Assembly: GCA_964540055.1 (NCBI GenBank)
Contig: CAZILC010000008.1
Coordinates: forward strand, 1-62,779
Reading direction: 5' to 3'
Length of the DNA: 62,779 nt
Source: an uncultured Gammaproteobacteria bacterium
GTDB taxonomy: Bacteria; Patescibacteriota; Microgenomatia; Levybacterales; UBA12049
Shown here in pieces: positions 20,349-40,875 of this stretch. The notes beneath the pieces were generated by a model, which saw only the letters and a program-made list of their open reading frames with translations, searched no databases and was not told where the DNA came from. The translations under genes were made by a program, and so were the position numbers. Positions within the stretch are counted from its first letter, which is position 1. Every line of letters starts with the position of its first letter.

Positions 20349-20356
20349 ATTGCTAA
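20330..20356 (+). promoter_or_regulatory. CIRCE-like HrcA operator (degenerate)
   Basis: TTGGCACTC-N9-TATTGCTAA compared with the consensus TTAGCACTC-N9-GAGTGCTAA (8/9 and 7/9 matches). It overlaps the promoter spacer and the -10. Confidence 0.6.
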
Positions 20357-20385
20357 TCCGATTTGCTCACGGATTACAAGAGCTA

Positions 20386-21117: not shown

Positions 21118-21129
21118 AATAGATTAACA

Positions 21130-21642: not shown

Positions 21643-21658
21643 TATTTAATATAAAGCT

Positions 21659-23575: not shown

Positions 23576-23591
23576 TAATTCCTCACATTTT

Positions 23592-24242: not shown

Positions 24243-24369
24243 GGTATTTTGCTCACTAAATACAAGCTCAGTATACTCTTTTACCTTTTTTGTTGCAATG
24301 TAACCAAGATTGCAATATTTTCTTTGATATGATATATCCCAATTAGGCGTTTGCAGACATAGTGAGCTC

Positions 24370-25266: not shown

Positions 25267-25307
25267 CACGATTTTTATTAGCAGAACTAGCTTTGAAATG
25301 CTATTAT

Positions 25308-25316
25308 TGCTATAAT
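25308..25316 (+). promoter_or_regulatory. extended -10 element (TGcTATAAT) 6 nt upstream of the dnaJ ATG
   Basis: TGC is at 25308-25310 and TATAAT at 25311-25316; the ATG is at 25323. Confidence 0.45.
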
Positions 25317-25322
25317 AAAAGC

Positions 25323-26231
25323 ATGGCAGATTCGAATGATTATTATGATATTCTGGGTGTGGGGAAATCTTCGACGCAAGCGGAGATAAAGAGTGCGTAT
25401 CGCAAATTGGCGCTGCAGTATCATCCGGACCGCAATAAAACCAAGGAAGCTGAGGAAAAATTCAAAGAAGTAACCAAAGCGTATGAAGTTTTGGGCAACG
25501 AAGAAAAGCGAAAACAATATGATCAATTCGGTGCTGCAGCTTTTGAGCAAGGTGCTGGTCAGGGACCTTTCGGCGGAGCAGGGGGACCGTTTGGTGGATT
25601 CGGCGGTCAGCAGGGAGGCCAATATGGTCCGTTTACCTACACCTATTCGACAAATGGGCAGGGCTTTGACTTCGGAGGATTCTCAGATCCTTTTGAAATT
25701 TTTGAACAATTCTTTGGCGGCGGAGCCGCGAGGCCGAGACGACCTGTCTATTCGATAACGATTAGTTTTAAAGAAGCAGTAAATGGCATAGAAAAGGAAG
25801 TAACAATTGATGGGAAAAATCAAAAAATTAAAATTCCCGCAGGAGTGGATCGGGGATCCCGGATCCGCTTTACCGATTATGATGTCATAGTTGATGTGAT
25901 GCCTGACAGCAAATTCGCTCGAGAAGGCTACGATATCATTACTGAGGAAGATTTGTCATTTCCTGATGTCTCTCTGGGAAAAGAACTCACAGTTGAAACC
26001 ATTGACGGGTCGGTCAAAATTCGGGTTCCTGCAGGAACGCAGCCAAACACACTGATCAGGCTGTCAGGACGGGGTGTCAGGCGTGTCAGAGGAACCGGTC
26101 GGGGAGATCATTATGTGAAGATCAAAGTAACTGTTCCTAAAAAATTATCCCACAAAGAAAAAAGTCTTCTTGAAGAATTGCAAAAAGAACAGTCAGACGC
26201 ATCTGATGAAAAGAAGAGTAAGTGGTTCTAG
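25323..26231 (+). CDS. dnaJ: J-domain co-chaperone lacking the zinc-finger domain (CbpA/type-II DnaJ-like)
   Basis: J domain (DYYDILGV...HPDRN), a G/F-rich region and C-terminal substrate-binding domains. The protein contains no cysteine residue at all. Confidence 0.85.
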   Translation: MADSNDYYDILGVGKSSTQAEIKSAYRKLALQYHPDRNKTKEAEEKFKEVTKAYEVLGNEEKRKQYDQFGAAAFEQGAGQGPFGGAGGPFGGFGGQQGGQYGPFTYTYSTNGQGFDFGGFSDPFEIFEQFFGGGAARPRRPVYSITISFKEAVNGIEKEVTIDGKNQKIKIPAGVDRGSRIRFTDYDVIVDVMPDSKFAREGYDIITEEDLSFPDVSLGKELTVETIDGSVKIRVPAGTQPNTLIRLSGRGVRRVRGTGRGDHYVKIKVTVPKKLSHKEKSLLEELQKEQSDASDEKKSKWF

Positions 26232-26250
26232 AGTATTGTATACTCAATAC

Positions 26251-27732
26251 ATGACTTCAAGTCAGAAAAGTTTGTCATTACTTATTGGAATTGTAATTCT
26301 TTTTTTTCTTCTTCGAACCATAAATCTCACCATACTTCCAATATTCAACGATGAATCAACCTATATCCGTTTTGGTTTACATCAACTGAATGAGCCTGAC
26401 CATAAGCCGTATTCACTTCTTATCGGAAAAGAGCCGCTGCTTCCCTATCTCTACGCTCTTTTTGGGACAGGTTTTGGAAATTTGCTAGTTGGTGCTCGAT
26501 TGGTGACAATTTTTTTTGGTTTACTAACACTGACAGGCTTATATCTTTATACAAAAACATTTATCGGCGAAGGCGCAGCTTTTTTCACTAGCCTTTTTTA
26601 TTGTCTCGTTCCTTATACTGTTTTTTTCGACCGGTTAGCCATTATGGATAGTGCGGTTAGTACTGTAGCCGTTTGGTCATTATATTTCACCCAACTGTTA
26701 CTCAAAAAATCTCTTTGGTGGTATGCGTTGGGTCTTGGCGCAGTGATGGGGATCGGGATGTGGGTCAAGACATCGGACTTATTTTTTCTTTTTTTGCCGC
26801 TGATTAGTTATGGAATACATTTCTCAAAAGATGATGAGGTTTACACCAAGGCTAAAATGTTGGTCAGCGCTCTGTTTCTTGCGCTTTTCATTTTTGTTCC
26901 GCTTTTCTCAAATCCTTTCTATACAGTACATATGCAACTTTTACAACAATATACCTACCCAATTTATTCTGTATTTTTATTTCCGTTTTCAGTGTGGTGG
27001 AATAATTTTGTGAGTGTCGTCGAATGGCTCTTTTTTTATCTGACGCCGCCGTTATTTTTTCTTGCAATCGGATCAATTGTTCTTATTACCAAACAAAAAA
27101 AGTTCAGTCTTGTAATGCTTTGGTTTTACTTACCATTACTGTATGAAATTTTGTATGCCAAACTTTTTACCTCAAGGCATTTACTTCTTGTACTAGTTCC
27201 GTTATTAATTGCAGCAGGATATGGATTTTTTCTGCTTCTAAAGAAAAAGAAAACCTTTGGAATAATTTTGGGAGTTTGTATAGTGATCTGGTGCTTGTAT
27301 GACACAGAAGTTTTACTCACGTCTCCTCTGAAGTATCCATATGTTTTTGCCGATAGAGCACAGGTTGATGCAACACAATATGTCCACGGATTCTCATCAG
27401 GATATGGAGTAGATGAGGCAGTAGCATACTTACAACAACAAGCAACAGTGCAACCTATTATTGTTTTGATCCGAAATGATTTTGGCAATCCAGAGGATGC
27501 GATGGTTGCATATCTTGATTACAAACCCAATATCCGCGTTGTCCCAATGAACGATCCGGCAACTGATGTTCCGCTAGTTTTCCAAAAAGTCGGGACGAGT
27601 GTCCCTGTCTATTTTGTCGCGCGCGGTGGATACAATGCCGGGCTTGAAAAGTATTTTGCTTCGGAAAAAATATTTGCCAAACCAAATGATAAAGAATTCG
27701 TTGGAGTAGCCAGATTACAACCAGTAAAATAG
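26251..27732 (+). CDS. GT-C fold glycosyltransferase (ArnT/PMT-like), second paralogue
   Basis: Polytopic protein with a first-loop FNDESTY (DE motif) and a soluble C-terminal domain. Confidence 0.6.
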   Translation: MTSSQKSLSLLIGIVILFFLLRTINLTILPIFNDESTYIRFGLHQLNEPDHKPYSLLIGKEPLLPYLYALFGTGFGNLLVGARLVTIFFGLLTLTGLYLYTKTFIGEGAAFFTSLFYCLVPYTVFFDRLAIMDSAVSTVAVWSLYFTQLLLKKSLWWYALGLGAVMGIGMWVKTSDLFFLFLPLISYGIHFSKDDEVYTKAKMLVSALFLALFIFVPLFSNPFYTVHMQLLQQYTYPIYSVFLFPFSVWWNNFVSVVEWLFFYLTPPLFFLAIGSIVLITKQKKFSLVMLWFYLPLLYEILYAKLFTSRHLLLVLVPLLIAAGYGFFLLLKKKKTFGIILGVCIVIWCLYDTEVLLTSPLKYPYVFADRAQVDATQYVHGFSSGYGVDEAVAYLQQQATVQPIIVLIRNDFGNPEDAMVAYLDYKPNIRVVPMNDPATDVPLVFQKVGTSVPVYFVARGGYNAGLEKYFASEKIFAKPNDKEFVGVARLQPVK

Positions 27733-27781: not shown

Positions 27782-28078
27782 ATGGCAGCTTGTAGCCTTA
27801 ATGAGATTTCTACTGATTTTGGGTGTTTTCCCAACGATCCTGTCGGGTTTGTCCAGAAGTTCTACGGAATTGGTCTGAGTTTTGTCGCGGCGTGTGCCCT
27901 CATTGCTTTAATTTATGGTGGGTATGTCGTCATGACTTCACGAGGTAATCCACAACGGGTCAATGACGGGAAGAGTTGGATTTATTATGCGATTGCTGGT
28001 CTGCTTCTCGCAATATTTGGCTTTGTATTTATCCAAACAGTGCTCGTTGATATCCTGCATGTGCCGGGATTTCATTAA
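27782..28078 (+). CDS. two-TM T4SS-pilin-like protein (VirB2/TrbC-like, CPR type)
   Basis: 98 aa. The segment CALIALIYGGYVVMTSRGNPQRVNDGKSWIYYAIAGLLLAIFGFVFIQTVLVDILHVPGF aligns along its whole length with the C-terminus of ORF 18143-19489. Confidence 0.6.
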   Translation: MAACSLNEISTDFGCFPNDPVGFVQKFYGIGLSFVAACALIALIYGGYVVMTSRGNPQRVNDGKSWIYYAIAGLLLAIFGFVFIQTVLVDILHVPGFH

Positions 28079-28132
28079 TCGCGTTTGACGCGACTGAAGA
28101 GAATGTATTTCTACCACGTCAAACGTGGTTTT
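28079..28132 (+). promoter_or_regulatory. pair of 3-nt-loop hairpins with an alternative cross-pairing (attenuator- or operator-like)
   Basis: Hairpin 1 is TCGCGT-TTG-ACGCGA (28079-28093). Hairpin 2 is CCACGT-CAA-ACGTGG followed by TTTT (28114-28132). CGTTTGACG (28082-28090) is the exact complement of CGTCAAACG (28117-28125). Confidence 0.45.
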
Positions 28133-28145
28133 CAGAGTTTATTGT

Positions 28146-31100
28146 ATGAAAAGATTGCTGCCTATATTTATCAGTTTCGTTTGTCTTTTTATTGTTTTAT
28201 TTTCATCGCCGCTCCCCGTTTTCGCACAAAATCTCAATCAGTCCCCGACTGACTCCCGCTGGGTGATTGATCCTGAAGTTACTTTTATCGGTAAAAATGC
28301 CCGCCGATCAGGAGATTTTCTTGACTGGACCCTTCAGAATTACAATTGGGTTTGTGTAAAGCAAATTAACGCCAGACAGTGTGATGATACCAATAATCCG
28401 ATTGAGAAATACTGGTCTCTCATCGTGCTGTATATCGTCGTGCCGATGCTTTTTGTGGTAATTCTTGCGACTTCCATCGTCATTATCGTGACGCGGGGGA
28501 AGAGTTTGACCATAATGCGCTTTATACCACGATTTATCGCAGTCGTTTTGCTGATTGTCTTTTCCTATTCACTTCTACAGTTTTTCTACCAGTTTACCGA
28601 CTTAATACAAGGTTTCTTCCTGCGGTCCAATATCAATAATCCTTGTCCGCCGAATTGTATTTCGGATAAAGATTTGCTCTATGTGGGTTGGGATTATACC
28701 AATTTTGTAGGTTTGCGTTTGCTGGGAGATAAATACGCAGAATCGGCGTTTATTTCGTTACTTCTGACCAAACTTACCGCACTTACTTATTTTGTCATGG
28801 TATTTTTACTGCTCGTTCGGAAAATTATTTTGTGGTTCTTTATCATTGTTTCACCAATTTTCCCGATCCTTCTCCTCTATTATCCCGTCCGTAATACCGG
28901 AAAAATCTGGATTGGGGAATTTTTCCGCTGGTTGTTGTATGCGCCGCTTTTCGCGATTTTTCTTAACGGTTTAGTGTACCTTTGGCGCAATCAAATTCCG
29001 CTTGTTTTTAGCAATCCCAATATTGGAAAAGCTGCCGCCATCGAGTATCCGACAGCAGTTAATATCCTTCTTGGCGGCCCACGCCAGCAGGTGACACCGA
29101 CCAACAGTGTAAATCTTGTTGAAACGTTTGCTCTCTACGTTGTTTCTCTTATTATGCTGTGGATTGTTATTTTGCTGCCGTGGATTCTTCTTCAGATTTT
29201 TCTTGATTACGCGCAAAATTTTGCGCCTGGTGATACTGCTGTCATGAAGACATTAGTAAACATGGCAACCACACCAAAAGGTGGTGGTTCTGGACCTGCG
29301 CCTGCTGAAGGTGGTGGAGGAGCAGCGATAGCGTTGCCGTTTGCTAAGAAATTCAACATTCCGACTAATATCGGGCCAGCGCCGGCCGGAGCTGCTAAAG
29401 AAATGAAGATCGAAAATGTCACTGCTAATCAGGCGACCTTTACCAGACCTGCTCTTATTAATACAGGAGAAATTGCGAATGCAAATGTAAATACCATTGC
29501 AAATGCCAATGTGAACGCTTCGGTCCTGAGTACAGCAAATGTCAAGCTTCCTAGCATGCGCGATATTGCTAAATTTGATATAGCTCTCAGATCAAATGAC
29601 GTATCCAAACAGCAAGAAGTTAGCAGATTCTCCGAACAGTTGGTAAAGATTTCAAATCCAGTCGTTGTTACGAATACGGTTGAAAAAGACAAATACCGTG
29701 AGATTCGGGAAAAACTAGGTCAGCAGAGCGCCACAGGAAATGTCGCTGCCAATAATGTTATGAAAGGCGCAAAAGCCTCAAACAGTAGTCTTAATAATGT
29801 TTCCAACCAGAAAGTGAAGAGCATGCTTGCGCAAATGGCAAATCCTAACTTGGCAACAGGTACCGATAAAGAGAAAATGACACAGCTAAACAGTATGCTT
29901 AAGAGTGCAAGTCAATCAACATCGCAGAGTTCAGTATCCAAGTCCAGTAAATCTACTGCTGCTACGAGCAAAGATTCGAGTTCTCAAATAAGTAGTCAAC
30001 TTGCATCATCTATTCTTAAAGTAAATGACAAAACAAGTGATAAAGAAATTCAAAAGATCAAAGATCAATTGCATCAATCTTCAAGTAACTCGGTAAGTAA
30101 GGCTGTCTCTTCAGCAATTACCACATCTGCCAAAGCTTCTACGCAAATGTCAGAAACACTCAAACAGGTTGCCAATCCAAGTAGTGTTACCAAGATTGAA
30201 GATAAAGCGCGTGTTGAGCAGCTTAGGTCCTCTCTTGAGAAGGCAAGTAAAGAAGGAAATACGCTCGCAAGCTCAATTCTTTCTGTCAGTGATAAAACAT
30301 CTGTCACTGATATTGAAGCACTGCAGCAAAAGATCCAACAGGCAAAAGAGAAAGGAGAACCAATCGCAACAGAAGTAGCAAAAGTGGCAAGTGCTACCAA
30401 TCTAACAACGCTGCCGATGATCAACAAAGTACAAAGTGTGAAGAAAGAAGATTATCAGGCAGTCAAAGATATGTGGAAACAAAACTATCAGGGTCTTGAA
30501 GTACCTCAGGGTATGGCAGGAAGTAGGTCCGAATGGCTTAAAGAAGATATTAAAAGTATTGATGAAACACTTGCACTTCTTTCATCACCGGATCAGGATA
30601 AGCAGCAGCAGGGTATGGATCAGGTTTCCAGTCTCTTACCGTTCCTTTTGGTTGGAGGATTCTCGCAAAATGAAATTATTGATTACTTGAAGGCCAAACA
30701 GGAAGCAGCAAAAGAAGTTTCCACATCACTCGCTGCTGATGAAGAAGATAAAGTCGGCATCACTACAAAAGCAACCCACGCAGTACAAACAATGTCAGCC
30801 TCAATGTCTGAGGGAACTGGCAGTGGAGCATCTGATGAGGACGAAGGTGAAAGTCCATTGACTTCAATCAGTTCAGTATCCAATGTCTCAAATACTACCT
30901 ACACACAGCCTGAAATTTCGAACGAAATTTTGAATATGGTCAATGTTAAAGTACCAAAACTCAGCGATATTGCCAAATTCGAAACCAGTGCTCTGAGGCA
31001 AGATACTTCCAAGACCGCAACGAAAGAGAATTTGCAAAATGTTCTGACAAAGATTGCAAATCCTGCACAAATTACTGACACGTCAGAGCGAAGTAAATTT

Positions 31101-32675
31101 GAACAGATTCATGAGAAATTACTCTCCGAACAACAGAACGGTAATCCAACAGCAGGATTCATTTTGAATGCGGCAATGAGAGCACAAGGCTCGGCACCTG
31201 AATCTGCAAAAGATACGCTTGCAAAGATAGCAAATCCATCCCTTGCTACTGCTGAGGCAGATAAAAAACGATTTAATGCGCTTCATGAATCTCTTGCAAA
31301 AGCAAGTAAAGAAGGAAATTCACTTGCGACCTCAATTCTTAGTACCAATGCAACAACTTCAGCACAAGACATTGAGAAATTGCAATCCAAGATTCAAGAA
31401 GCTCAAGAAAAAGGTGAAACTGTCGCAGCTTCCGTTTCCCCAATCCTTGGGACACAATCTCTGCCAAAAGTTAATAAAGTACAATCTGTCAGTAATGAAG
31501 ATTATCAGGCAGTTAAGAATACCTGGATGCAAAATTATCAAAGTGTGGAAGTGCCAAATGGTGGTAATCGTTCGGAATGGGTCAAGCAGGATATCGCCGA
31601 TATTGATACAACGATTGGACTTCTTTCTTCCGATGATGAACAAAAAGTACAACAAGGAATGGATCAGGTTTCAAGTGTCCTACCATTCTTACTTGCAGGA
31701 GGATTCTCTCAGACTGAAATTATTCAATATTTGAAAGCCAAACAGGATGCAGCAAGGGAAGTTTCATCGCAATTAATGTCAGATGAAGAACAGCAAGTTA
31801 GTGTTTCTTCAGGATCTCAACATACTCAAGCGCAACAGGTAATGACAGCCTCAGTTTCCACTAGTTCACAGGATGCAAATGTATCTGTTGATAACTCAGG
31901 ACCTGGTGAAGAATCTGCGCTTAGTACGCAATCATTGGCTGGTGCACAAGCACCAACGGTTGCGGTACAAAATGACATTCTTGTAAAAGCAGATCTGAAG
32001 ATACCAAGAATGATTGATGTTGCGAAATATGAGACGCGAAAAGTAACGAGCGACAAAGAGGAAGCAAATCGACAGGAAAAAACGCATGATGCACTCATGA
32101 AGATTGCCAATCCTGCAAAATTTGTGACAGAAACAGACAGGCAAAAGTATGAAGATCTTAGAGCAAAATTGGCACAGGACAGTCAAAAAGGAGATCCTAC
32201 TGCGGGTATGATTCTTTCTGCTGCAACAAGTACGAATGAGGGTGATACAGCAGCTGCATTGCCGACAGCCAATCAAACACAAAAAGTCAGCCAACAAGAT
32301 TACGATGAGGTAAGAAAACTTTGGGAAGAAAACTATCGCACATTGCCAATCCCTGCAGAATATGGTACCGACAGAATTGCGTGGATCAAAGCAGATGCTG
32401 CCTATATTGAAGATACGATTACACAATTAACAGCAGCCGATACAGAGAAACAAAAGGAAGGAATGAAACGCGTTTCAGATATTATGCCAATGCTTCTTCT
32501 TGGAGGATTCTCAAACGAGGAAGTTGTCGGATACTTGAATGCAAAAATTGAGGCTGGAAAAACAGTTCTTTTTGAATTGCAAAAAGAGGAAGAAGCAAGT
32601 GTAACAGTTGAGGCAAAAACAGGAGAACAGCAGCAATTACAAGCCAAAGAAGTAGAAGAAAAACCGGAAGAGTAG
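28146..32675 (+). CDS. giant (1509 aa) polytopic membrane protein with a triplicated helical-repeat tail
   Basis: Signal peptide MKRLLPIFISFVCLFIVLFSSPLPVFAQ, about six TM helices (nt ~28410-29205), a Gly-rich linker, then ~1150 aa of K/E/Q/S/A-rich repeats. It ends with tandem stops TAG TAA. Confidence 0.8.
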   Translation: MKRLLPIFISFVCLFIVLFSSPLPVFAQNLNQSPTDSRWVIDPEVTFIGKNARRSGDFLDWTLQNYNWVCVKQINARQCDDTNNPIEKYWSLIVLYIVVPMLFVVILATSIVIIVTRGKSLTIMRFIPRFIAVVLLIVFSYSLLQFFYQFTDLIQGFFLRSNINNPCPPNCISDKDLLYVGWDYTNFVGLRLLGDKYAESAFISLLLTKLTALTYFVMVFLLLVRKIILWFFIIVSPIFPILLLYYPVRNTGKIWIGEFFRWLLYAPLFAIFLNGLVYLWRNQIPLVFSNPNIGKAAAIEYPTAVNILLGGPRQQVTPTNSVNLVETFALYVVSLIMLWIVILLPWILLQIFLDYAQNFAPGDTAVMKTLVNMATTPKGGGSGPAPAEGGGGAAIALPFAKKFNIPTNIGPAPAGAAKEMKIENVTANQATFTRPALINTGEIANANVNTIANANVNASVLSTANVKLPSMRDIAKFDIALRSNDVSKQQEVSRFSEQLVKISNPVVVTNTVEKDKYREIREKLGQQSATGNVAANNVMKGAKASNSSLNNVSNQKVKSMLAQMANPNLATGTDKEKMTQLNSMLKSASQSTSQSSVSKSSKSTAATSKDSSSQISSQLASSILKVNDKTSDKEIQKIKDQLHQSSSNSVSKAVSSAITTSAKASTQMSETLKQVANPSSVTKIEDKARVEQLRSSLEKASKEGNTLASSILSVSDKTSVTDIEALQQKIQQAKEKGEPIATEVAKVASATNLTTLPMINKVQSVKKEDYQAVKDMWKQNYQGLEVPQGMAGSRSEWLKEDIKSIDETLALLSSPDQDKQQQGMDQVSSLLPFLLVGGFSQNEIIDYLKAKQEAAKEVSTSLAADEEDKVGITTKATHAVQTMSASMSEGTGSGASDEDEGESPLTSISSVSNVSNTTYTQPEISNEILNMVNVKVPKLSDIAKFETSALRQDTSKTATKENLQNVLTKIANPAQITDTSERSKFEQIHEKLLSEQQNGNPTAGFILNAAMRAQGSAPESAKDTLAKIANPSLATAEADKKRFNALHESLAKASKEGNSLATSILSTNATTSAQDIEKLQSKIQEAQEKGETVAASVSPILGTQSLPKVNKVQSVSNEDYQAVKNTWMQNYQSVEVPNGGNRSEWVKQDIADIDTTIGLLSSDDEQKVQQGMDQVSSVLPFLLAGGFSQTEIIQYLKAKQDAAREVSSQLMSDEEQQVSVSSGSQHTQAQQVMTASVSTSSQDANVSVDNSGPGEESALSTQSLAGAQAPTVAVQNDILVKADLKIPRMIDVAKYETRKVTSDKEEANRQEKTHDALMKIANPAKFVTETDRQKYEDLRAKLAQDSQKGDPTAGMILSAATSTNEGDTAAALPTANQTQKVSQQDYDEVRKLWEENYRTLPIPAEYGTDRIAWIKADAAYIEDTITQLTAADTEKQKEGMKRVSDIMPMLLLGGFSNEEVVGYLNAKIEAGKTVLFELQKEEEASVTVEAKTGEQQQLQAKEVEEKPEE
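29541..32675 (+). repeat. three in-frame composite super-repeats (A 29541-30938, B 30939-31982, C 31983-32675)
   Basis: Each copy starts VK[LVI]Px[ML]xD[IV]AK[FY][DE], carries IANP units and ends with a ~100-aa GMDQVSS..LPFLL.GGFSQ.EII.YLKAKQ module. Confidence 0.85.
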
Positions 32676-32718
32676 TAAGTCAAAATTGAGGTTTGAGAGT
32701 TGCGATTTGAGTATGAAA

Positions 32719-32745
32719 CCCTATTAGTAGGGCTTGTTCTTTTTG
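32719..32745 (+). terminator. weak hairpin plus T-rich tract after the giant gene
   Basis: CCCTA-TTAG-TAGGG followed by CTTGTTCTTTTT. Confidence 0.3.
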
Positions 32746-32774
32746 AAAATTTAGTATTTAATAGAAAGAGTAGT

Positions 32775-35700
32775 ATGTTTGGTAATATATTTAAAAAGGA
32801 TCCTGAAAATCCATCACAAACAGCCGGAACGAGTACACCAAATGCAAGTGTGCCACAAGCGGGTGCTTCCTCACAACCACCTGCAGTTCAAGCTCCACCA
32901 GTTCAAGATGCATCGGCACAGCCACCACAACAGGCGCCGTCTGCTTTTTCAAATTCGCCTGCACCTTCAGCATTTTCAAATAATCCCGCTCCTGCTCCAA
33001 CTCCTGATCAGGCTCCTCCATCCAATCTTTCTTCGCAACAACCAATCGATCCTGCAGCAAGTTCGCCTGTTGCGTCTGATACTCCGCAGGATGTTTTGCC
33101 TCCGACGCAAGAGCCAATGGATAGTACGCCACCAGCACAACAATATGGAACGGATGCTGGAACCCAACAAGGGGTTTCCTCACCTGATCAACCAGGATCA
33201 TCTCCAGCTTCCAATGGCGGCCCATCGGATTCGTCACAAGGTGGAGAAATGGCAGCACTCAGTCATCTTGATTCCCGCGCAGCACAATCTTTGACGAAAG
33301 CTCAGGAAGAGACCCGAAGAATCAAACAGCAATCAATTGAGCCTGAGCAATTGCTTTTGGGACTGTTATATGATCAACAAGTTTATAACATGCTCAATGA
33401 AATGGGAGCAGACGGGGGTCAGATCTCCAAAGAAATTCAAACTGATGAGAAAATGGGAACATATCAAGCACAACCGACACTTAGTAAAATCTCTTTGGAA
33501 GTATTTGATCAGGCATATCGCGATGCAAAAATGCGAGGCGCAAATTTCGTTGCTCCTGAAGATGTGCTTGTCGTTCTGTTTAATCCAAATTTCAAAACAG
33601 CGCAGTATCTTCAAAAACATAATTTAAAGAAAGAAACAGTTGTTGAGAAATTCTCCAAAAATCCGACAGTATCCTATGGTAAAAAATCAGTACTTGAAAA
33701 ATACGGGACTGATTTGACAAATGAGGCAAAAGAAGGCAAATTGGATCCAGCAGCAGGGCGTGATAAAGAGATTGACCGAATCATTCATATCCTCCTTAGA
33801 CGCACAAAAAATAATCCGATTATTATCGGTGAAACTGGAGTTGGAAAGACTGCGATTGTTGAAGGTTTGGCGCAAAAAATTGTAACAGGTGCAGTACCTA
33901 AAGATTTGTTGGAAAAAAGAATTATCCAGCTTGATGTTGCAGCACTTGTTGCTGGAGCAAGCCATAGAGGAGAGTTTGAAGAAAGACTTCGTGAAGTTAT
34001 TAACGAGGTTTTAGGATCCAACAACAGAATTATTCTTTTCATAGATGAGGTGCATACGCTGATGGCCAATGACGGTGAAGGTGCTTCAGGCGGAGCCGCC
34101 AATATTATCAAACCGCATTTAGCTCGAGGCCATTTCCAGTTGATCGGCGCGACAACGACAATGGAATACCGCAAGAACTTTGAGAAAGATAAAGCTTTTG
34201 AAAGGCGGTTCCAACCAGTAACAGCTGAGGAACCAAGCGAAGAAAATGCGCTTGAGATGCTTAAAGTGCTGCGTCCCAAATATGAGAAATTCCATCATGT
34301 GACGTTGCCGGATGATTCACTCAAAGAATGTATTAAGCTTTCAAAGAAATATATCGGCGAGCGTTATCTTCCGGACAAGGCAGTCGACCTTCTTGATGAG
34401 GCATCTTCTGAAGTGAAGTTACAAATTGATGCTGGCAATCGAGCAAATGGTGATTCGACAGTTAAAAAAGCAGATATCGAAAAAGTAGTCAGTGCGTGGA
34501 CTGGTATCCCAATCACCAAATTGACCGAGGATGAAAGTCAAAAACTCCTAAAACTTGAAGACAGAATTCATCAGCGGCTGATTGATCAGCAAGAAGCTGT
34601 ATCTGCAGTTTCTGAAGCAGTTCGACGCGGAAGAATCGGACTCGCCGCAGCCAATAGACCAATTGCATCATTTATTTTCCTTGGACCAACCGGTGTTGGT
34701 AAGACGGAGCTTGCTAAGACCTTGGCAGAATTATTGTTCGGTCGTGATGATGCAATGGCCAGACTTGATATGTCAGAGTACATGGAAAAGCATGAGGTTG
34801 CCAAATTGATTGGTGCGCCTCCAGGTTATGTCGGGTACGAAGAAGGCGGACAGTTGACCGAAGCAGTTCGTAAAAAACCGTATTCGATTGTTCTCATGGA
34901 TGAAATTGAGAAAGCTCATCCTGACGTGTTTAATATTTTACTGCAGCTTCTTGAGGACGGACGACTGACGGATAACAAAGGCAACACCATTTCCTTTAAA
35001 AACACGATTGTTATTTGTACCTCAAACATCGGTAGCTCAACAATTCAGCAACATTTGAGTAAAATCGATCCCAAAGCTAAGAGATCTCCTGAGGATATGG
35101 AGAAAAGCTTTAAAGAATTGCAGGGAATTGTCCGTGAAGAACTGACGAAATTCCTTCGTCCTGAGGTACTCAACCGTTTTGATGAAGTCGTTATCTTCAA
35201 ACCTCTCATGCCAGAGCATATGGCTGGTATTGCCAGGCTTGGTATTGCCAAGACAGCAAAGCTTTTGAAAGAGCAAGGATTCAATCTCCAGATAACCGAA
35301 CGTGCTATTGCTCAGCTTGCAAAAGATGGATATGACCCGGTTTTCGGTGCGCGCCCGCTTCGACGCTTGATCCAAACGGCTATTGAAAATCCGATTGCAC
35401 TGGCTATCATTTCAAAGAAGTTTGTTCCCGGTGATACGATTGTCATTGATTTCAGCGACAACACCAATGAATTCTTCTTCTCCAAAGGCAGTGGAGTTGG
35501 TGCTGAGGCGATTGCACCGATGACAGATGATCAATTCCGCACATTCCTTCTGGAACTTAACAACCCTGATACTGTTAAGAATGCTAATGACAAGCAACGC
35601 TTTATGGAAGTTCATGATCTCGTGGTTAAAGGTCAATCGGAAAATAACAAGACTGCAAATTCGATTTTAGCCGTCACAGCAGCGACACAATTAACTGATA

Positions 35701-37076
35701 TTGCAACAATTCGAAAGGAACTGGAGATTGGAAAAGGTAAAGGAGATGCAATGAGCCAGGCTGTTTTGGATCTTGCTGCAACCGTTGCACATCAGATTGC
35801 CGCGACAATTAAATTAAAACACATCATTTTAGAAATCATCCAGCCTGACACGATTGTCCAGCCTGTAAAGAAAGCACGCTTTATGCAATTGCATCAGAAA
35901 GTAACTGAGGAAGCGCAGCGCCAGAATGAATTGGCAGTCAAAATTATGGCCGTCAATGATACAACTCCAGCAGAAACAATTGATGAATTGATGGAGATGC
36001 TTAGAACCGGTGCTGCCAACAGCGAGGATCTTGCAACAGAAATTCTCTCAGTGGTTAATAACGAAATTGCTGAGGAAGCAGAGGCAGTTCATGATGCTGA
36101 TCCGGCCATACAGTTTAAAAAAGTACTTCAGCAGCTGATAAATCCATTATATCTTGCAGATCCTGAAGACAAAGCAAAATTCAGCCAAATGTACGATAAA
36201 ATCACCAAAGCAAGTAATTCAGGAAATCCCTTAGCTGCCGAAATTTTGGCAATCACCGATATCACTTCTGATGCGGATATCCAGAAACTCAAAATTGCAC
36301 TCGAGACTGCTGACAAACAAGGTGATCCATTTGCTAAAGAACTTATGGCGGTTATTAACGAAGCTATCGCTCAGGCTCCTATCAGAAAATTGAAACGGGC
36401 AATGCTTCTGATCTCAAATCCTGTTAGTGCCCAGACGCAGCAAGAGCGAGATCAATATACGGAATTACAGACAAAGATCACCTCAGCTAGCCAAAGTGGT
36501 AATCAGCTCGCACCCAAAGTTCTCGCGATTAAAGAAGGATCAACTGATGAAGAAATGAAAGAATTGCTCAAAGGACTGCAGGACGCAAAAGATAAAAATG
36601 ATGAGGTCGCATCCATGATCTTATCTCTGGTTGGCAATGTCACACCAGTTGAACAAACCGCTCCTCAACCTGCACAAGATGCATCTGCTGCACCAACGCA
36701 GGATTCAATACCATCACAGCCGGCTGCAAACTCTTCTTTTGATACAGCACCTGTTGCACCTACTGCAACATCAGCACCGCAACCATCGGTGTCATTCCAA
36801 ACGGCAACTGGTGCAGTAGTTCGACCTTCGCCAAATGTCGGAACAGGTTCCGGCTTCACACCGCCTCCGCCATTACCCGGAGCAGGTCCTATGATCGGAA
36901 CTCAGCCGACATCATCCCCAGTTGACAGCAATCCAGGTGGCGCAGCAGTAAATCCCAATGGCTCAATGATGCAGCCGCAAAATGCCTATAATGCATACAG
37001 TTTCTCAGGCATTCCGGCAAGCGCCCGCCCAATGGGTTATGTCTCTCCTCAAACCAGACAGGAAGATGTCGAGTAG
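32775..37076 (+). CDS. Clp/Hsp100-family double-AAA+ ATPase without M-domain or ClpP loop, with disordered termini and a C-terminal IANP-repeat extension
   Basis: The ATG at 32775 is preceded by AAAGAG. The order is a ~175-aa P/Q/S-rich N-terminus, a Clp_N-like domain, NBD1 ([16 protein letters not shown]), NBD2 ([32 protein letters not shown]), four ~92-aa repeats and a ~145-aa P/S/T-rich tail. Confidence 0.85.
35538..36641 (+). repeat. four IANP-type helical repeats in the Clp ATPase C-terminal extension
   Basis: The units begin [30 protein letters not shown] and [10 protein letters not shown]. Each has the pattern +.+F..(L/V)H/Y, GN..A..IL and T..DI..L shared with the giant protein units. 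Confidence 0.8.
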
Positions 37077-37116
37077 TATTGCAAATTTAATTTAGATCTT
37101 TTATACTGGCTCAACT

Positions 37117-37140
37117 GCCTCTTCATATGAATAAAGAGGC
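37117..37140 (+). terminator. hairpin after the Clp gene (weak terminator candidate) spanning the ATG of the next small ORF
   Basis: GCCTCTT - 10 nt - AAGAGGC. There is no clean T-run. Confidence 0.25.
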
Positions 37141-37312
37141 ACTTCTTAACATTTTACTTCCCGGAATCTTATTACTTATAGCCTGGATCATTACTATCTT
37201 TACGTTTTATATGTACCAAACCCCAAAGACTTCTGTTGAAGGAATTGCGATGCAAAAGTTTTCAAATTTAAATCCATCCCCGATTACCTCACCATCACAA
37301 AGCAATAATTAA
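37127..37312 (+). CDS. possible single-TM small protein (61 aa)
   Basis: One clear TM helix (LLNILLPGILLLIAWIITIFTFYMY). The start is buried in the hairpin, so coding status is uncertain. Confidence 0.3.
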   Translation: MNKEALLNILLPGILLLIAWIITIFTFYMYQTPKTSVEGIAMQKFSNLNPSPITSPSQSNN

Positions 37313-37335
37313 AATATACAATCATTATCCCTATA

Positions 37336-38049
37336 ATGACATTAGAACATGGAATAGAAAAAAGAGGTTTGTTACTATCACCTGCTCGTTTACTTGAAGG
37401 TTTTGGTACAAATCTTTCAAGAACAAAATCCGCTTCTGATCCTACAGTTGTACGTGTTGCTCATGCTGTATTTCATCATATACATGCAATAGAAAATTCT
37501 CATTGGAAAAGAGATACTATATTCCCATCAGTTTTCAGAGCCACACAACCGAATTTTACCAATATTGTACTCATGCCTGGAGCACGAATAAGTGATGTTA
37601 CAGTAAAAATGCCTGATGTACGTGCGTTTGCAGATCCATTGCGTTATGTCAGATTGACAGTTGCTCCTGATGAACCTGCTGTCCTTCAGTTCTCTTTTCA
37701 TGGTACACATCCAGTGATGACTGAAATACCACATCATCCTATCCTTGTTGCGAGTCTTATGGATAAATTCGCTGCTCAAACAGAGCAATACAGCAAACAT
37801 GGGAGCGCTTTTGAAAAAGATCGGGCAAGGAGAGATTCACTAAATGAGGATTTTATAACCGGACCTGTCGAGCAATATCTCGAAGCTAGGTATAAGTCCG
37901 GTGAAATGCATAATGGAGATTATCTAAATTTTTTTCGAGGAGTAAGGAATTTACGAATCAAATATAATGAAGGTTATTTTATCTCACAAGTAAACAAAAA
38001 TAGTCTTAGAGACGTTTTACTTGAAGGACTTGCATGTGTTAGACCTTAA
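37336..38049 (+). CDS. hypothetical soluble protein (237 aa), no recognisable domain
   Basis: Clean ORF with no TM segment and no motif I can name. Confidence 0.5.
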   Translation: MTLEHGIEKRGLLLSPARLLEGFGTNLSRTKSASDPTVVRVAHAVFHHIHAIENSHWKRDTIFPSVFRATQPNFTNIVLMPGARISDVTVKMPDVRAFADPLRYVRLTVAPDEPAVLQFSFHGTHPVMTEIPHHPILVASLMDKFAAQTEQYSKHGSAFEKDRARRDSLNEDFITGPVEQYLEARYKSGEMHNGDYLNFFRGVRNLRIKYNEGYFISQVNKNSLRDVLLEGLACVRP

Positions 38050-38113
38050 ATTTTATAGTTGAGAACTCGTCTCATTGTAATTTCCAACCCATCAACTTAT
38101 ACTAATAATATAA

Positions 38114-38132
38114 CCGCAAGCATTGTGGTTTT
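38114..38132 (+). terminator. small 3-nt-loop hairpin plus TTTT, similar in form to 28114-28132
   Basis: CCGCAA-GCA-TTGTGG (one G-U pair) followed by TTTT, 6 nt before the ATG at 38139. Confidence 0.25.
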
Positions 38133-38138
38133 ATTGCT

Positions 38139-38465
38139 ATGAATTATGTGACTCTGCCTGTCATGCTACTTAAGTTCTGGTTCGTTGAAAGTCCGGTTGC
38201 ACTCTTTAAATTTTTTGCCTCGTTTAATTCCGCATTTTTTGAACTTTTTTCCTTGCCATTAATGTTTCGGACCTATTTTCAGCCACTAAAAAATGAATAC
38301 CGGCAGGGTTTGGTGGGTTTTTCTCGAGCAATTGGGATTTTTATCAAAACGATTTTTATATTTGTTGATCTTTTGATGTTTGCTGTTATTTTAGGTTTGG
38401 AAATTGCGATTTTTGTGTCTTTTGTGATGTTCCCGATAGCGACAGTTGCATTGCTGTTTTATTAA
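38139..38465 (+). CDS. small integral membrane protein (3 TM)
   Basis: Hydrophobic 108-aa ORF. Its stop lies 1 nt before the ATG of the next gene, which suggests translational coupling. Confidence 0.5.
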   Translation: MNYVTLPVMLLKFWFVESPVALFKFFASFNSAFFELFSLPLMFRTYFQPLKNEYRQGLVGFSRAIGIFIKTIFIFVDLLMFAVILGLEIAIFVSFVMFPIATVALLFY

Positions 38466-38466
38466 T

Positions 38467-40875
38467 ATGTTTTTGTACGTTCGATTTTATCAGTTTTATA
38501 GATCTGCTCTGATTCGTAGCATCAGGGCTATGGCTTTTATGCTGCTTTTTGCGCTTATTATCTATCTCATTTTGCATAATGAGTCACCCAAATTTGCGGT
38601 TTTTCTATTCAATCTCGTTGTCATGCTTGAAGTATTCTTTCATTACAAAATAAGCCGCGCTGTGCCCACGATTGAAGTTGCAAAAAATAAAAAAGAAACC
38701 ATGAATGATTCTTTCACGATGCAAGCACTATATGGCTTTGTTACGCAGCCTACCACGGAAGGAGTCATCAAAGAGTTAATTAAATATCCCCAAGTTAAAT
38801 TGGTGATGGAAAAAGCGAATATCACGCATAAAGAACTGGTGTTTAACAACATTGAGAAAGATGTGCTGGCAGAAAGCGCATTTGAGACAGCGCAGACTTT
38901 CAAGGGCAAATTTGTGACAACGCTTGATGTTTTTATCGCTTATCTGTTCCTCATTGAAAAAGATACCAAACTCTTTTTTGCCAAACAACTCAAGACAGCC
39001 GATATTGCAAATATCGTCCATTGGGTTCGCGTTACTATGCCAGAGGAGGAAAATCCCAAGAAATGGCTGATTCATTTTTATGGTGAAGGAATTGGTGAGG
39101 GGTTAGTTTCGGGTTGGACCTATGAAACTAAGAAGTATACCTCGCAGTTTACAAGTTATGCGATTCGGGAGGAGCCGTTGATCGGGGGGCGGGAGAAGGA
39201 ATTTGGAATGATGCTTGAAGCCCTCACCAAAGTCGAGAATAATAATGTACTTTTGATTGGTGACATCGGTTCTGGTAAAGAGACGCTTGTGAAAGCTCTC
39301 GCGTATCACAGTTTCGGGGGAAACTTAGGAGGCTGGCTGAATTACAAACGAGTGTTGCAACTTCTGGTCGGGGCTTTGACAGCTGGTGCGACCAATCGTG
39401 GTGACCTGGAATCCCGTTTACAAAATATCATTGCTGAATTATCTCATGCGCAGGATGTTTTTCTGTATATCCCGGATTTTCAAAATATTCTCGGAGCATC
39501 TGCGTATGGGTTGGATCTATCAGGTGCGATATTACCGTATCTTAAAGATGGAAATATGCCGATCATTGCGACCATGTCTACAGGCAATTTCAAAGCGTAT
39601 ATGGAGAAAAATCCGATAAAAGAAGTCTTTTCAATTATCTCACTTGCTGAACCTGAGCAGGATAATGCAATTCAGATGGTACTCGGGGAAGCTGAGAAAA
39701 TTGAGAAAAAATATGCTGTAATTCTTAGTTATCGGGCAATAATTAGCGCGGTAGAGCTTTCGGAACGGTTTTATCAGGATGAAGTCCTGCCGGGAAGTGC
39801 GGTTGCCCTTTTGGAAGATGTTGCCAATACTGTCGATAAAATGCCTGATCGAAAAACCTATGAGCGCACGCATCACAAGATGGTACTTGAAGAAGATGTG
39901 GTGAAAAAAGTTGAACAGACAAGCCATGTGGCAATTGCGTTGCCGACTGGCGATGAGATTCAGGTTTTGTTACATCTGGAAGAAAAATTGCACGAAAAAG
40001 TGATTGCACAAGATGATGCAATCAAAGCCGTTAGTGAGGCAATGCGCCGACTTCGTTCCGGCATGTCAACAAGTGAACGCCCGATTTCCTTTCTCTTCCT
40101 TGGCCCAACTGGTGTCGGAAAAACAGAAACAGCCAAATCCCTCGCTGATTTTTATTATGGCGGTGAGAAGAATATGATCCGTCTTGATATGAGTGAATAT
40201 ACGGATGAAAACGGCCTTAAACGTTTGCTCGGAGCGCCTCCTGGAGAAGGCAATGAGCGGGGAGAACTCACAGATAAAATTCATGATAATCCGGCGGCGC
40301 TCATTTTGCTTGACGAGTTTGAAAAGGCTAATCCAAAGATTCACAATCTTTTCCTTCAGGTTTTTGATGATGGGAGATTGACTGACAACAAAGGCAATAC
40401 GGTCAGTTTCCGAAACGCAATTATCATCGCAACTTCCAATGCTGGATCTGAATTTATCCGCGAGCAGATAGATAAGGGTGTGAAAATTGATAACAAATTT
40501 GAGCACGCTTTGATGGATCAACTGCAATCAAAAGGCATTTTTAAGCCGGAGCTTCTCAACAGGTTTGACGATGTGGTAATTTTCAAGCCACTCGGTCAGG
40601 AGCAAGTAACCCAAGTGGTGAAGCTGATGCTTGAGAGTTTGAAAAAGGATCTTGAGAAGCAGGATATCAAAGTATACTTTGATGATGCCGTAATTGCAAA
40701 AATCGCCCAAGAAGGCTTCGACAAAGACTTCGGCGCCCGCCCACTTCGCCGCTACATCCAGGATACGATTGAGGACATCATCGCCCAAAAGAAACTCACC
40801 AAAGAAATCGATAGGGGCAAGACTGTCACGTTTTCATTAGATGGAACAGGGGCATTGCGGACGGGGATAGTTTGA
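38467..40875 (+). CDS. membrane-anchored Clp/Hsp100-like protein with degenerate NBD1 and no pore-loop tyrosines
   Basis: Two N-terminal TM helices. NBD1 Walker A reads GDIGSGKE (39259-39282) and Walker B reads YIPDF (D-F at 39475-39480). NBD2 is intact ([17 protein letters not shown]), but the pore loop reads GAPPGEGNERG instead of [12 protein letters not shown]. Confidence 0.8.
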   Translation: MFLYVRFYQFYRSALIRSIRAMAFMLLFALIIYLILHNESPKFAVFLFNLVVMLEVFFHYKISRAVPTIEVAKNKKETMNDSFTMQALYGFVTQPTTEGVIKELIKYPQVKLVMEKANITHKELVFNNIEKDVLAESAFETAQTFKGKFVTTLDVFIAYLFLIEKDTKLFFAKQLKTADIANIVHWVRVTMPEEENPKKWLIHFYGEGIGEGLVSGWTYETKKYTSQFTSYAIREEPLIGGREKEFGMMLEALTKVENNNVLLIGDIGSGKETLVKALAYHSFGGNLGGWLNYKRVLQLLVGALTAGATNRGDLESRLQNIIAELSHAQDVFLYIPDFQNILGASAYGLDLSGAILPYLKDGNMPIIATMSTGNFKAYMEKNPIKEVFSIISLAEPEQDNAIQMVLGEAEKIEKKYAVILSYRAIISAVELSERFYQDEVLPGSAVALLEDVANTVDKMPDRKTYERTHHKMVLEEDVVKKVEQTSHVAIALPTGDEIQVLLHLEEKLHEKVIAQDDAIKAVSEAMRRLRSGMSTSERPISFLFLGPTGVGKTETAKSLADFYYGGEKNMIRLDMSEYTDENGLKRLLGAPPGEGNERGELTDKIHDNPAALILLDEFEKANPKIHNLFLQVFDDGRLTDNKGNTVSFRNAIIIATSNAGSEFIREQIDKGVKIDNKFEHALMDQLQSKGIFKPELLNRFDDVVIFKPLGQEQVTQVVKLMLESLKKDLEKQDIKVYFDDAVIAKIAQEGFDKDFGARPLRRYIQDTIEDIIAQKKLTKEIDRGKTVTFSLDGTGALRTGIV

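Follow-up and report, generated by a model that had tools for sequence, protein, structure and literature searches.

A ClpB paralogue shares a repeat module with the adjacent VirB6-type protein of a patescibacterial type IV secretion locus

Analysis of a 62,779-nt stretch of contig CAZILC010000008.1 (assembly GCA_964540055.1; the whole stretch is referred to here as the window) revealed that positions 27782 to 40875 carry the VirB2-pilin and VirB6 arm of a patescibacterial type IV secretion system (T4SS) of the Gram-positive type. The VirB6 gene is followed by a gene encoding an aberrant ClpB paralogue, designated Clp1, which by alignment is devoid of the M-domain and which carries the same repeat unit, termed ANP, as the C-terminal tail of the VirB6 protein. 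The association is conserved among related genomes. These data suggest that the secretion machine may cooperate with a motor of the chaperone type, and a functional coupling of Clp1 to VirB6 was assigned a probability of roughly 0.5.

The region had been singled out from its DNA letters as a candidate undescribed envelope machine consisting of a pilin-like protein, a giant repeat protein and two Clp-type proteins (here referred to as the original prediction). All seven ORFs (open reading frames) listed there were recovered on the + strand with the same boundaries, within a long run of genes on the same strand. The designation as undescribed did not hold for the pilin and VirB6, which belong to the described patescibacterial T4SS (PMC10633639, PMC12102498); the linkage to the Clp genes was not found in the literature searched. 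The window is a chromosomal segment of a Candidatus Levybacteria (Microgenomatia, Patescibacteria) genome. The remainder of the window encodes housekeeping functions (murB, class I lysS, metG, hrcA-grpE-dnaK, dnaJ, nusA, infB, pnp, RNase J, rpsG, and rpoC), and the GC content is even across the region. The related loci used for comparison, numbered with the prefix L, are mostly assigned to Candidatus Levybacteria/Levyibacteriota or to "Patescibacteria group". Many of the related records are titled "uncultured Gammaproteobacteria bacterium" despite a Levybacteria-type gene order and proteins that are 50 to 80% identical; these titles look like placeholders. The pilin, VirB6, and Clp1 features are as follows (aa, amino acids; TM, transmembrane; AF2, AlphaFold2).

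27782 to 28078, + strand: VirB2-type T4SS pilin, 98 aa (PF18895, NCBIfam, orthologue alignment).
28146 to 32675, + strand: extended VirB6/TrbL-family protein, 1509 aa (Pfam matches of homologues, fold of an orthologue).
28413 to 29213, + strand: membrane domain of VirB6, about aa 90 to 356, five long TM helices (homology to the AF2 model of orthologue P0009).
29511 to 30785, + strand: tail super-repeat 1 (aa 456 to 880) with anchor motif, ANP units, and module B (BLASTP, ANP hmmsearch).
30891 to 31820, + strand: tail super-repeat 2 (aa 916 to 1225) (BLASTP against super-repeat 1).
31941 to 32672, + strand: tail super-repeat 3 (aa 1266 to 1509), equivalent to the single tail module of the ~680-aa family members (BLASTP, family consensus).
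32775 to 37076, + strand: Clp1, ClpB-like class-1 Hsp100, 1433 aa (Pfam, NCBIfam, ClpB alignment, motif survey).
32775 to 33254, + strand: N-terminal low-complexity extension of Clp1 rich in P/Q/S/A (aa 1 to 160) (sequence; no family match).
35529 to 36659, + strand: array of four 92-aa ANP units in Clp1 (aa 919 to 1295) (hmmsearch, 105 to 113 bits per unit; unit alignment).
36660 to 37073, + strand: C-terminal low-complexity tail of Clp1 rich in P/Q/S/A (aa 1296 to 1433) (sequence).

Linkage of these genes was determined in the 85 fully flanked loci, i.e., those with at least 9 kb on each side of VirB6. The pilin gene was present in 83 of them and dnaK was located within 10 kb of VirB6 in 77. 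Failure of the genes to co-occur in related genomes had been set beforehand as evidence against the original prediction; Clp1 was found with VirB6 in 82 of the 85 loci, in which the genes follow one another as pilin, VirB6, and Clp1. The gap between pilin and VirB6 has a median length of 4 nt (156 loci) and that between the VirB6 stop codon and the Clp1 ATG a median of 53 nt; the packing of the three genes is operon-like. The position of the module between dnaK/dnaJ and nusA/infB is the same across many genomes. VirB6 and Clp1 were also found together in at least six further genomic contexts with no dnaK in the DNA covered: L002, L004, L005/L086/L090, L166, L168, L154, L159, and the Levybacteria loci L017, L022, and L025. 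The upstream DNA covered in these contexts is as short as ~1 kb in L002 and L168, and the pilin gene adjoins VirB6 in all of them except L168. The surrounding genes differ: PsiE and AlkZ are encoded downstream in L002; SmpB upstream and DnaG and a sigma-70 factor downstream in L004; a sigma-70 factor, ArsP, and a VWA protein upstream in L166; and NifU upstream in L168. In L005, L086, and L090, which are of the Daviesbacteria type, the Clp gene is positioned upstream of an array of four pilin genes and VirB6.

The second line of evidence is the repeat module shared by the two proteins. The 1509-aa VirB6 protein comprises a signal peptide, a polytopic domain that ends at about residue 355, and a hydrophilic tail of ~1150 aa. 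In typical family members the tail is a single module composed of an anchor motif (..LP.MRDIA.FE..), one or two ANP units of 92 aa (consensus L..IANP....DK..F..L...L..AS..GN.LA..IL..), and the ~100-aa module B (consensus ..DYE.VK..W..NY...LPFLL.GGFS..E...YLKAK). BLASTP comparison revealed 51% identity between super-repeats 1 and 2 over 253 aa (E = 3.5e-81) and similarity between super-repeats 2 and 3 (E = 1.4e-39). The giant protein is shown to be an extended VirB6 in which the normally single helical C-terminal module, with its ANP units and module B, is triplicated. No tandem repeats were detected at the DNA level between 27.7 and 41 kb; the repeats, which are old, can be seen at the protein level only. 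The original prediction had noted a common repeat in the first ATPase and the giant protein, and this similarity is real: the Clp1 tail matched the VirB6 tail with E = 2.5e-24 in BLASTP, and ten units align unit by unit.

Searching 1.84 billion representative proteins with the ANP profile yielded 147 matches, comprising 96 proteins with a VirB6 membrane domain, 31 module-B fragments, 2 Clp1 fusions, and 18 short fragments. Within the loci, ANP units were detected in 78 of 81 VirB6 proteins (1 to 13 units each) and in 22 of 71 Clp1 proteins (1 to 5 units), all of the latter from the clade nearest the window. Among these representatives ANP is thus restricted to the tails of VirB6 and Clp1, so that two adjacent gene families are its sole carriers. 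Clp1 has acquired four copies in the sub-lineage of the window, and retention of the array on Clp1 extends over a clade in which the identity of the Clp1 cores has dropped to ~75%. The lengths of VirB6 and Clp1 are correlated (Spearman 0.49), and the longest VirB6 tails measure ~2000 aa among the loci and 2790 aa among the library proteins. The AF2 model of the Clp1 ANP array is all-helical with a mean confidence score (pLDDT) of 82. A Foldseek search of the Protein Data Bank (PDB) with this model gave no match, the best being vinculin with a probability of 0.23, and a Foldseek search with the P0009 model, which contains the tail modules, matched PDB entries in the VirB6 membrane part only. 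The possibility that ANP is a degenerate Clp_N repeat was rejected, as hhalign of 176 ANP units against the alignment of the Clp1 N-domain gave a probability of 0.7%. A word-indexed homologue search with the Clp1 ANP array returned four matches, too few to widen the taxonomic range.

Analysis of the Clp1 protein sequence predicted the Pfam domains Clp_N, AAA, AAA_lid_9, AAA_2, and ClpB_D2-small. Clp1 and the second Clp protein of the region, Clp2, both belong to the class-1 Clp/Hsp100 proteins, and both score below every curated cut-off for ClpB, ClpA, ClpV, ClpG, and ClpK. For Clp1, the scores were 856.7 against a cut-off of 1232.1 for ClpB (TIGR03346), 688.6 against 993 for ClpA, and 646 against 884.95 for ClpV/TssH (TIGR03345). 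The best sequence matches were E. coli ClpB (671 bits) and ClpC (664 bits). Residues 10 to 395 of the Clp1 core correspond to residues 11 to 409 of E. coli ClpB and core residues 401 to 735 to ClpB residues 529 to 850; the alignment skips ClpB residues 410 to 528, so the M-domain is absent from Clp1. A motif survey of 71 Clp1 sequences including that of the window is in agreement: in 53 of the 58 sequences in which the spacing was measurable, 101 to 103 aa separate the D2 Walker A motif from the lid motif, as in ClpA. Of the 71 sequences, 70 retain both Walker A motifs, and 70 retain the D2 pore loop GAPPGYVGY in intact form. The position of the D1 pore-loop tyrosine is occupied by histidine in 67 of the 71 and by arginine or lysine in the remainder. 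The ClpP-docking tripeptide [ILVM]G[FLM] was found in none of 58 Clp1 sequences between the sensor-1 and NRxD motifs. The claim that both Clp proteins are devoid of an M-domain and a ClpP loop was thus supported by alignment and spacing and by the tripeptide count, which was 0 of 58 for Clp1 and 1 of 27 for Clp2. Clp1 is thus shown to descend from ClpB, with loss of the DnaK-binding M-domain. With the M-domain and the ClpP loop missing, both the canonical DnaK route and the feeding of ClpP are closed to Clp1. It is predicted that the protein should still thread substrate through D2.

Features of Clp1 recur in Clp proteins of the dnaK-free contexts: the histidine pore loop is common to those of L002, L004, L005, and L168, and the spacing that reflects the missing M-domain was observed in L004, L005, and L166. 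L168 represents a more distant lineage (VirB6 38% identical). Its VirB6-linked Clp protein (L168:4863-6839) has, in addition to the histidine pore loop, a coiled-coil-like insert of ~50 aa at the M-domain site, which suggests a stepwise loss of the M-domain within the family.

The assignment of the giant protein to VirB6 was based on its homologues and on a structural model. The first 400 residues retrieved 105 homologues with a typical size of ~680 aa, several of which have precomputed matches to PF04610 or PF19590. The original prediction had proposed a comparison with the TrbL/VirB6 model PF04610; the domain of the window protein itself gave no match at E <= 0.01, whereas 8 of 18 aligned homologues did match (best E = 2e-6). 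An AF2 model was obtained for the 690-aa orthologue P0009, which is 52% identical over the query domain (pLDDT 78; alignment of 38 sequences). After a signal peptide and a small N-terminal domain, the model has five long helices (residues 93 to 123, 130 to 166, 204 to 248, 252 to 288, and 330 to 363) and a folded, all-helical tail; the estimate of about six TM helices is accordingly reduced to five long ones. A Foldseek search of the PDB with this model placed TrwI/VirB6 chains of the R388 T4SS at ranks 1 to 8 and again at rank 13, with probabilities of 0.93 to 1.00 overall and 0.99 to 1.00 for the first eight, target TM-scores of 0.40 to 0.53, and a best E value of 0.014. A search of PDB sequences with the VirB6-family profile gave chance-level matches only. 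The suspected T4SS-type nature of the polytopic domain is therefore supported by the PF04610 matches of the homologues and by the top eight structural matches. VirB6-family genes without an adjacent pilin or Clp gene were observed in L036, L038, and L167 and may represent second copies or a different lineage of the family; in L167, CheB/CheR-histidine kinase genes border the VirB6 gene.

The topology of VirB6 was predicted from the model and from the mean net charge of 78 aligned sequences (orthologues, the window protein, and the P0009 reference). The segments predicted to be inside are positively charged (loop 1, +2.8; loop 3, +1.3; C-terminal flank, +1.7), and those predicted to be outside are negative or near neutral (N-domain, -2.4; loop 2, ~0; loop 4, -0.2). 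Cysteines are almost confined to the predicted outside segments, namely, the N-domain and loop 2, and only 3 were counted in 44,577 tail residues, as against 174 among the 30,800 residues that make up the N-terminal regions of 400 aa. VirB6 of Agrobacterium tumefaciens has at least five TM helices with the N terminus outside and the C terminus inside. The same orientation, N-out/C-in, is predicted for the protein studied here. The tail is predicted to be cytoplasmic because of the signal peptide followed by five TM helices, the positive-inside charge pattern, the scarcity of cysteine in the tail, and the fusion of the same module to Clp1, which has no signal peptide.

The VirB2-type identity of the pilin is well supported by family models and orthologues. 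The 98-aa protein scored 26.5 bits against PF18895 (T4SS_pilin), 0.1 bit below the gathering cut-off of 26.6 (E = 6.9e-6), and matched the NCBIfam model of the Mbov_0395 pilin-like conjugal transfer family (E = 2.8e-6). PF18895 was matched at E <= 0.01 by 16 of 17 pilin orthologues, one of which also matches PF04956 (TrbC/VirB2), and precomputed PF18895 matches exist for the orthologues in L003 and L005. The two-TM, pilin-like character originally ascribed to the ORF is supported by these family matches: the protein forms a hairpin with hydropathy segments at about residues 28 to 52 and 68 to 90, joined by the short basic loop SRGNPQRVNDGK. The full-length alignment of the 17 orthologues revealed that the hairpin pattern, an N-terminal cysteine pair (C4/C15), and a C-terminal PGF motif are conserved. 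A search of PDB sequences with the pilin profile gave chance-level matches only. An N-terminal signal or leader peptide that is removed on maturation is typical of VirB2/TraA. No such peptide was detected on the window pilin, the ORF of which cannot be extended upstream, and the 17 aligned orthologues begin with M-x-x-C without a hydrophobic leader. In this respect the family departs from classical VirB2, and its members may insert into the membrane without a leader.

A second PF18895 hairpin is encoded elsewhere in the window. The original prediction had pointed to the C terminus of the ORF at 18143 to 19489 (- strand, 448 aa), and the hairpin was indeed found there (E = 1.2e-9), preceded by a signal peptide and a cysteine-rich domain of ~300 aa. 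From its domain order, this ORF reads as a putative pilin that bears a large extracellular head as a fusion. The ORF that comes next (17759 to 18139, - strand; 126 aa) is polytopic, and both are kept upstream of hrcA in the close relatives L007, L158, and L014.

The region ends with a pair of genes that was found only in Levybacteria-type loci.

38139 to 38465, + strand: 108-aa polytopic membrane protein, conserved partner of Clp2 (alignment with 17 invariant positions).
38467 to 40875, + strand: Clp2, membrane-anchored Clp-like protein, 802 aa (Pfam, NCBIfam, motif survey).

As originally described, the 108-aa ORF encodes a membrane protein and ends 1 nt before the Clp2 ATG; wherever Clp2 occurs in the loci, this gene lies in front of it. 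The stop-to-ATG gap has a median of 1 nt and is at most 30 nt in 69 of 71 loci, a 4-nt overlap being frequent; the 108-aa gene is translationally coupled to Clp2. By analogy with the VirB3-VirB4 coupling, the 108-aa protein was considered as a VirB3/PrgI candidate, which found no support, since 23 orthologues gave zero matches in a Pfam scan that covered the VirB3 and PrgI models. Clp2 scored 458.4 bits against ClpB (TIGR03346; cut-off 1232.1). An N-terminal two-TM hydrophobic hairpin (aa ~18 to 62) is present in all 28 orthologues. The N-terminal region of Clp2 showed no similarity to the Clp1 N-domain in BLASTP (E = 40), and a word-indexed search with it returned ten matches, again too few to widen the taxonomic range. 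A motif survey of the window Clp2 and its 28 orthologues revealed a degenerate D1: the Walker A motif is of the type GxGKE/N without Ser/Thr (GSGKE in the window), and the Walker B region is devoid of DE (YIPDF in the window). The D2 Walker A and B motifs are almost invariant across the 29 sequences. The pore loops of both rings have no aromatic residue and thus no tyrosine, the D2 loop of the window protein being GAPPGEGNERGE. The distance of ~103 aa from the lid to the D2 Walker A motif indicates that the M-domain is absent, and the ClpP-docking tripeptide is missing from 26 of 27 sequences. With ATP hydrolysis predicted for D2 only and no threading loops, Clp2 is more readily explained as a scaffold or regulator than as a translocase.

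These features lead to the following model of how the proteins may work together. Clp1 would be a hexameric unfoldase, independent of DnaK and ClpP, which the tail/ANP module would recruit to the VirB6 channel on its cytoplasmic side. It could unfold and feed substrate proteins, or it could extract and recycle pilin or VirB6 assemblies, by analogy with ClpV (or Francisella ClpB) in the type VI secretion system (T6SS). Clp2 and its 108-aa partner would form a second, membrane-tethered ring in Levybacteria-type loci only. VirB4 would be encoded elsewhere in the genome. The statement of the original prediction that the window contains no VirB4 or VirD4 was borne out: a Pfam scan of 47 window ORFs, which include every plausible gene of >143 aa, gave zero VirB4/VirD4 matches, and none was found in the Pfam-annotated flanks (up to 10 kb) of L001 to L005, L166, and L168. 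VirB4 has been reported in 2,417 of 3,035 Patescibacteria genomes (~80%), and in Microgenomatia T4SS components are often dispersed, VirB6 is "scarce", and VirB3 is mostly not located beside virB4 (PMC12102498). Given this frequency of VirB4 and the dispersal of T4SS genes in Microgenomatia, its location elsewhere in the genome is likely. A more specific proposal is that Clp1 is a dedicated "ClpV of the type IV system" that docks on the VirB6 tail via ANP/module B and provides VirD4/VirB11-like unfolding or recycling, with Clp2 and the 108-aa protein as a regulatory ring and the ensemble as a new energising module; it is put forward tentatively and could well be wrong.

Published accounts cover the patescibacterial T4SS with its arrays of VirB2-like pilins and report that it is essential (PMC10633639, PMC12102498, PMC12857230); before it, no secretion system had been shown to be indispensable to a patescibacterium growing as an epibiont (PMC10633639). 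Like the patescibacterial MPF-FATA T4SS (Wang et al. 2023, PMC10633639; Quinonero-Coronel et al. 2025, PMC12102498), the locus combines a PF18895 pilin with VirB6 and is chromosomal and relaxase-free. Unlike in those accounts, which are centred on virB4, VirB6 was readily detected here and is flanked not by VirB4 but by a ClpB paralogue without an M-domain. An extended VirB6 with a large hydrophilic C-terminal domain is a recognised type (PMC12857230), and a VirB6 core followed by such a repetitive domain is shared with RvhB6 of the Rickettsiales, VirB6-4 of Anaplasma, and F-type TraG (PMC12857230). In contrast to these proteins, the tail described here consists of ANP units and module B, is confined to a patescibacterial family, has no fold match in the PDB, and has its ANP unit also on the adjacent ATPase.

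With ClpB (TIGR03346) and ClpA/ClpC, Clp1 has in common two AAA+ modules, the Clp_N and D2-small domains, and an intact D2 pore loop. It differs from ClpB in the missing M-domain, the histidine in place of the D1 pore-loop tyrosine, the long disordered termini, and the ANP array, and without a ClpP-docking loop it is not ClpA/ClpC-like in function. The nearest functional precedent for the proposed role of Clp1 is that of ClpV/TssH and Francisella ClpB, the latter of which acts on the T6SS sheath (PMC7182274): in each case a double-ring Hsp100 ATPase is genetically tied to a secretion apparatus. Both act without ClpP, and ClpV is also DnaK-independent. Unlike ClpV, Clp1 falls below the TssH cut-off (given above), has no M-domain at all, and has T4SS-type partners; no T6SS family was present among the Pfam matches of the window. 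The putative link of Clp1 to the T4SS is drawn from synteny and domain sharing only, unlike that of ClpV to the T6SS.

Several observations weigh against a coupling of Clp1 to VirB6. Clp1 may be the only, general-purpose Hsp100 of these genomes, and the Clp genes may be no more than members of an enlarged chaperone neighbourhood, as dnaK lies within 10 kb in 77 of the 85 loci. Most loci are from Levybacteria, so the counts are not phylogenetically independent. The ANP array of Clp1 could stem from a duplication of the neighbouring gene. The predicted topology rests on the AF2 model of an orthologue together with charge statistics, and the copy number of the tail repeats, which swings widely from 1 to 13 units, is more typical of surface proteins. 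Finally, no report of an Hsp100 as a T4SS component was found in the literature searched; Clp or AAA+ proteins are not mentioned in PMC10633639, PMC12102498, or PMC12857230, and no link between Clp and the patescibacterial T4SS was found in that literature.

The alternative that survives best is that Clp1 and Clp2 are general quality-control Hsp100s, between which pilin and VirB6 landed once and have since been inherited vertically, with ANP as a by-product of duplication. The original prediction had itself allowed for the Clp genes being merely syntenic heat-shock genes, and this concern keeps its weight, given the chaperone genes directly upstream.

20320 to 26231, + strand: chaperone context directly upstream, with hrcA (20320), grpE (21130), dnaK (21659), and dnaJ (25293) (Pfam).

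Hsp100 genes near chaperone operons are common. The frequent proximity of dnaK and the best matches of Clp1 to ClpB and ClpC agree with this explanation, as does the silence of the searched literature on an Hsp100-T4SS link. Furthermore, in L033, L035, L042, and L043 dnaJ is located between the two Clp genes, after Clp1 and just before the 108-aa gene and Clp2. Yet loci without dnaK keep the pilin-VirB6-Clp1 trio, also with an altered gene order, and VirB6 and Clp1 are tightly packed (median gap, 53 nt). Clp1 also lacks the M-domain that canonical ClpB needs for cooperation with DnaK, and it has retained the ANP array across the clade in which its core has fallen to ~75% identity. The only CIRCE-like inverted repeat in the window is located at 20330 to 20356 (+ strand; 3 mismatches), where it overlaps the TTG start annotated for hrcA; the gene probably begins further downstream. 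No CIRCE operator was found near pilin, Clp1, or Clp2 in the search of the window, and a gene on the opposite strand (23592 to 24371) separates dnaK from the downstream gene array; direct control of the Clp genes by HrcA is therefore not indicated, though it may occur. Promoter and terminator scans of the cluster gave nothing above the shuffled expectation. A chaperone neighbourhood of this kind is judged possible, with odds well short of even.

A second alternative is that the tail of the giant protein is an extracellular fibre or adhesin for host contact and that, without the involvement of a T4SS, its export or assembly is driven by the Clp ATPases. The variable number of ANP units would be usual for a surface protein, secreted S8/M4 proteases are often encoded in the same cluster, and VirB4 is missing from the window. 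Five TM helices after a cleaved signal peptide would, however, put the C terminus inside, as does the charge pattern of the 78 sequences; the tails are essentially free of cysteine, and the ANP module is also fused to the cytoplasmic Clp1. A VirB6 fold with a VirB2-type pilin as partner makes a T4SS context the simpler explanation. Since the tail is predicted to be cytoplasmic, the surface-fibre function considered in the original prediction is disfavoured, and the alternative as a whole appears improbable. Still less credible is a remnant of a conjugative element, in which pilin, VirB6, and their neighbours would be leftovers rather than a working chromosomal system: by ancestry the genes for VirB2 and VirB6 belong to conjugation, the pilin matches an NCBIfam pilin-like family of mycoplasma integrative and conjugative elements, and insertion sequences flank the module in L001 and L003, yet the site between housekeeping genes (dnaK/dnaJ and nusA/infB) is the same in many genomes, no relaxase, integrase, VirB4, or VirD4 was found among the 47 scanned ORFs of the window, the GC content is unremarkable, and the reading frames are intact and conserved. 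The mobile-element reading was rejected because of the conserved chromosomal position and the lack of an integrase or relaxase.

Two ORFs of the region are located in a variable slot between Clp1 and the 108-aa gene (37077 to 38138 in the window).

37127 to 37312, + strand: 61-aa single-TM ORF of the variable slot (tblastn, 1 of 165 loci; no family).
37336 to 38049, + strand: 237-aa soluble orphan of the variable slot (tblastn, 0 of 165 loci; no family).

Both ORFs exist as originally described, but with these tblastn counts neither belongs to a conserved unit. The slot encodes secreted S8 and/or M4 proteases in 44 of 78 related loci (for example, L043:14728-16482, L017:18364-20055, and L056:15505-17787), the S8 subtilases with a fervidolysin-type prodomain and the thermolysin-like M4 proteases with SdrD_B or CarboxypepD_reg domains. 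It is shorter than ~700 nt in 13 loci. The proteases could be cargo, processing enzymes, or mere occupants of an insertion hot spot. Between VirB6 and Clp1, 18 loci encode a conserved exported protein of ~460 aa with an N-terminal anchor and no Pfam family (for example, L057:12237-13628 and L002:3230-4612), which is not present in the window; its C-terminal domain also occurs in L168:3178-4791.

Further genes of the window were noted. Two membrane glycosyltransferases of the PMT_2 type (GT39/ArnT-like) are encoded at 26170 to 27732 (+ strand) and 12249 to 13769 (- strand); the former is positioned between dnaJ and pilin in this genome only (tblastn, 0 of the first 85 loci, L001 to L085). The ORF at 51582 to 52916 (+ strand, 444 aa) combines an AAA domain with a Lon-type lid, gave no match to a Lon protease domain, and is a stand-alone Lon-like ATPase. 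In the product of the ORF at 3337 to 5574 (+ strand, 745 aa), a B3/4 domain, otherwise known from PheRS beta, is fused to the C terminus of a class I lysyl-tRNA synthetase (tRNA-synt_1f). Putative secreted proteins are encoded at 6872 to 8170 and 8899 to 9756 (both + strand), one with PT repeats and a dockerin-type domain and the other with PEGA and SH3 domains.

The locus represents a variation on a known system, in which the T4SS pilin/VirB6 module is joined by a conserved ClpB paralogue that shares a domain with VirB6 and is devoid of the M-domain, accompanied in Levybacteria by a membrane-anchored pair of a pseudo-Clp and its partner. The two Clp proteins define, by sequence, two new Hsp100 subfamilies, one M-domain-less with a histidine pore loop and the other membrane-anchored without pore-loop tyrosines. 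The results also indicate that VirB6 in Microgenomatia is not really scarce, only divergent. If the Clp genes belong to the chaperone neighbourhood, the locus is merely an unusual example of such a neighbourhood and its interest is reduced to the two aberrant Clp families. If Clp1 is coupled to VirB6, no Hsp100 would have been linked to a type IV system before it. The patescibacterial T4SS has no recognisable relaxase and coupling proteins, and Clp1 is a concrete, testable candidate for the missing cytoplasmic partner of the T4SS in Microgenomatia. Should Clp1 indeed act as the "ClpV of the type IV system", the locus would encode an energising module, so far overlooked, of the pilus/T4SS by means of which Microgenomatia live on their hosts.

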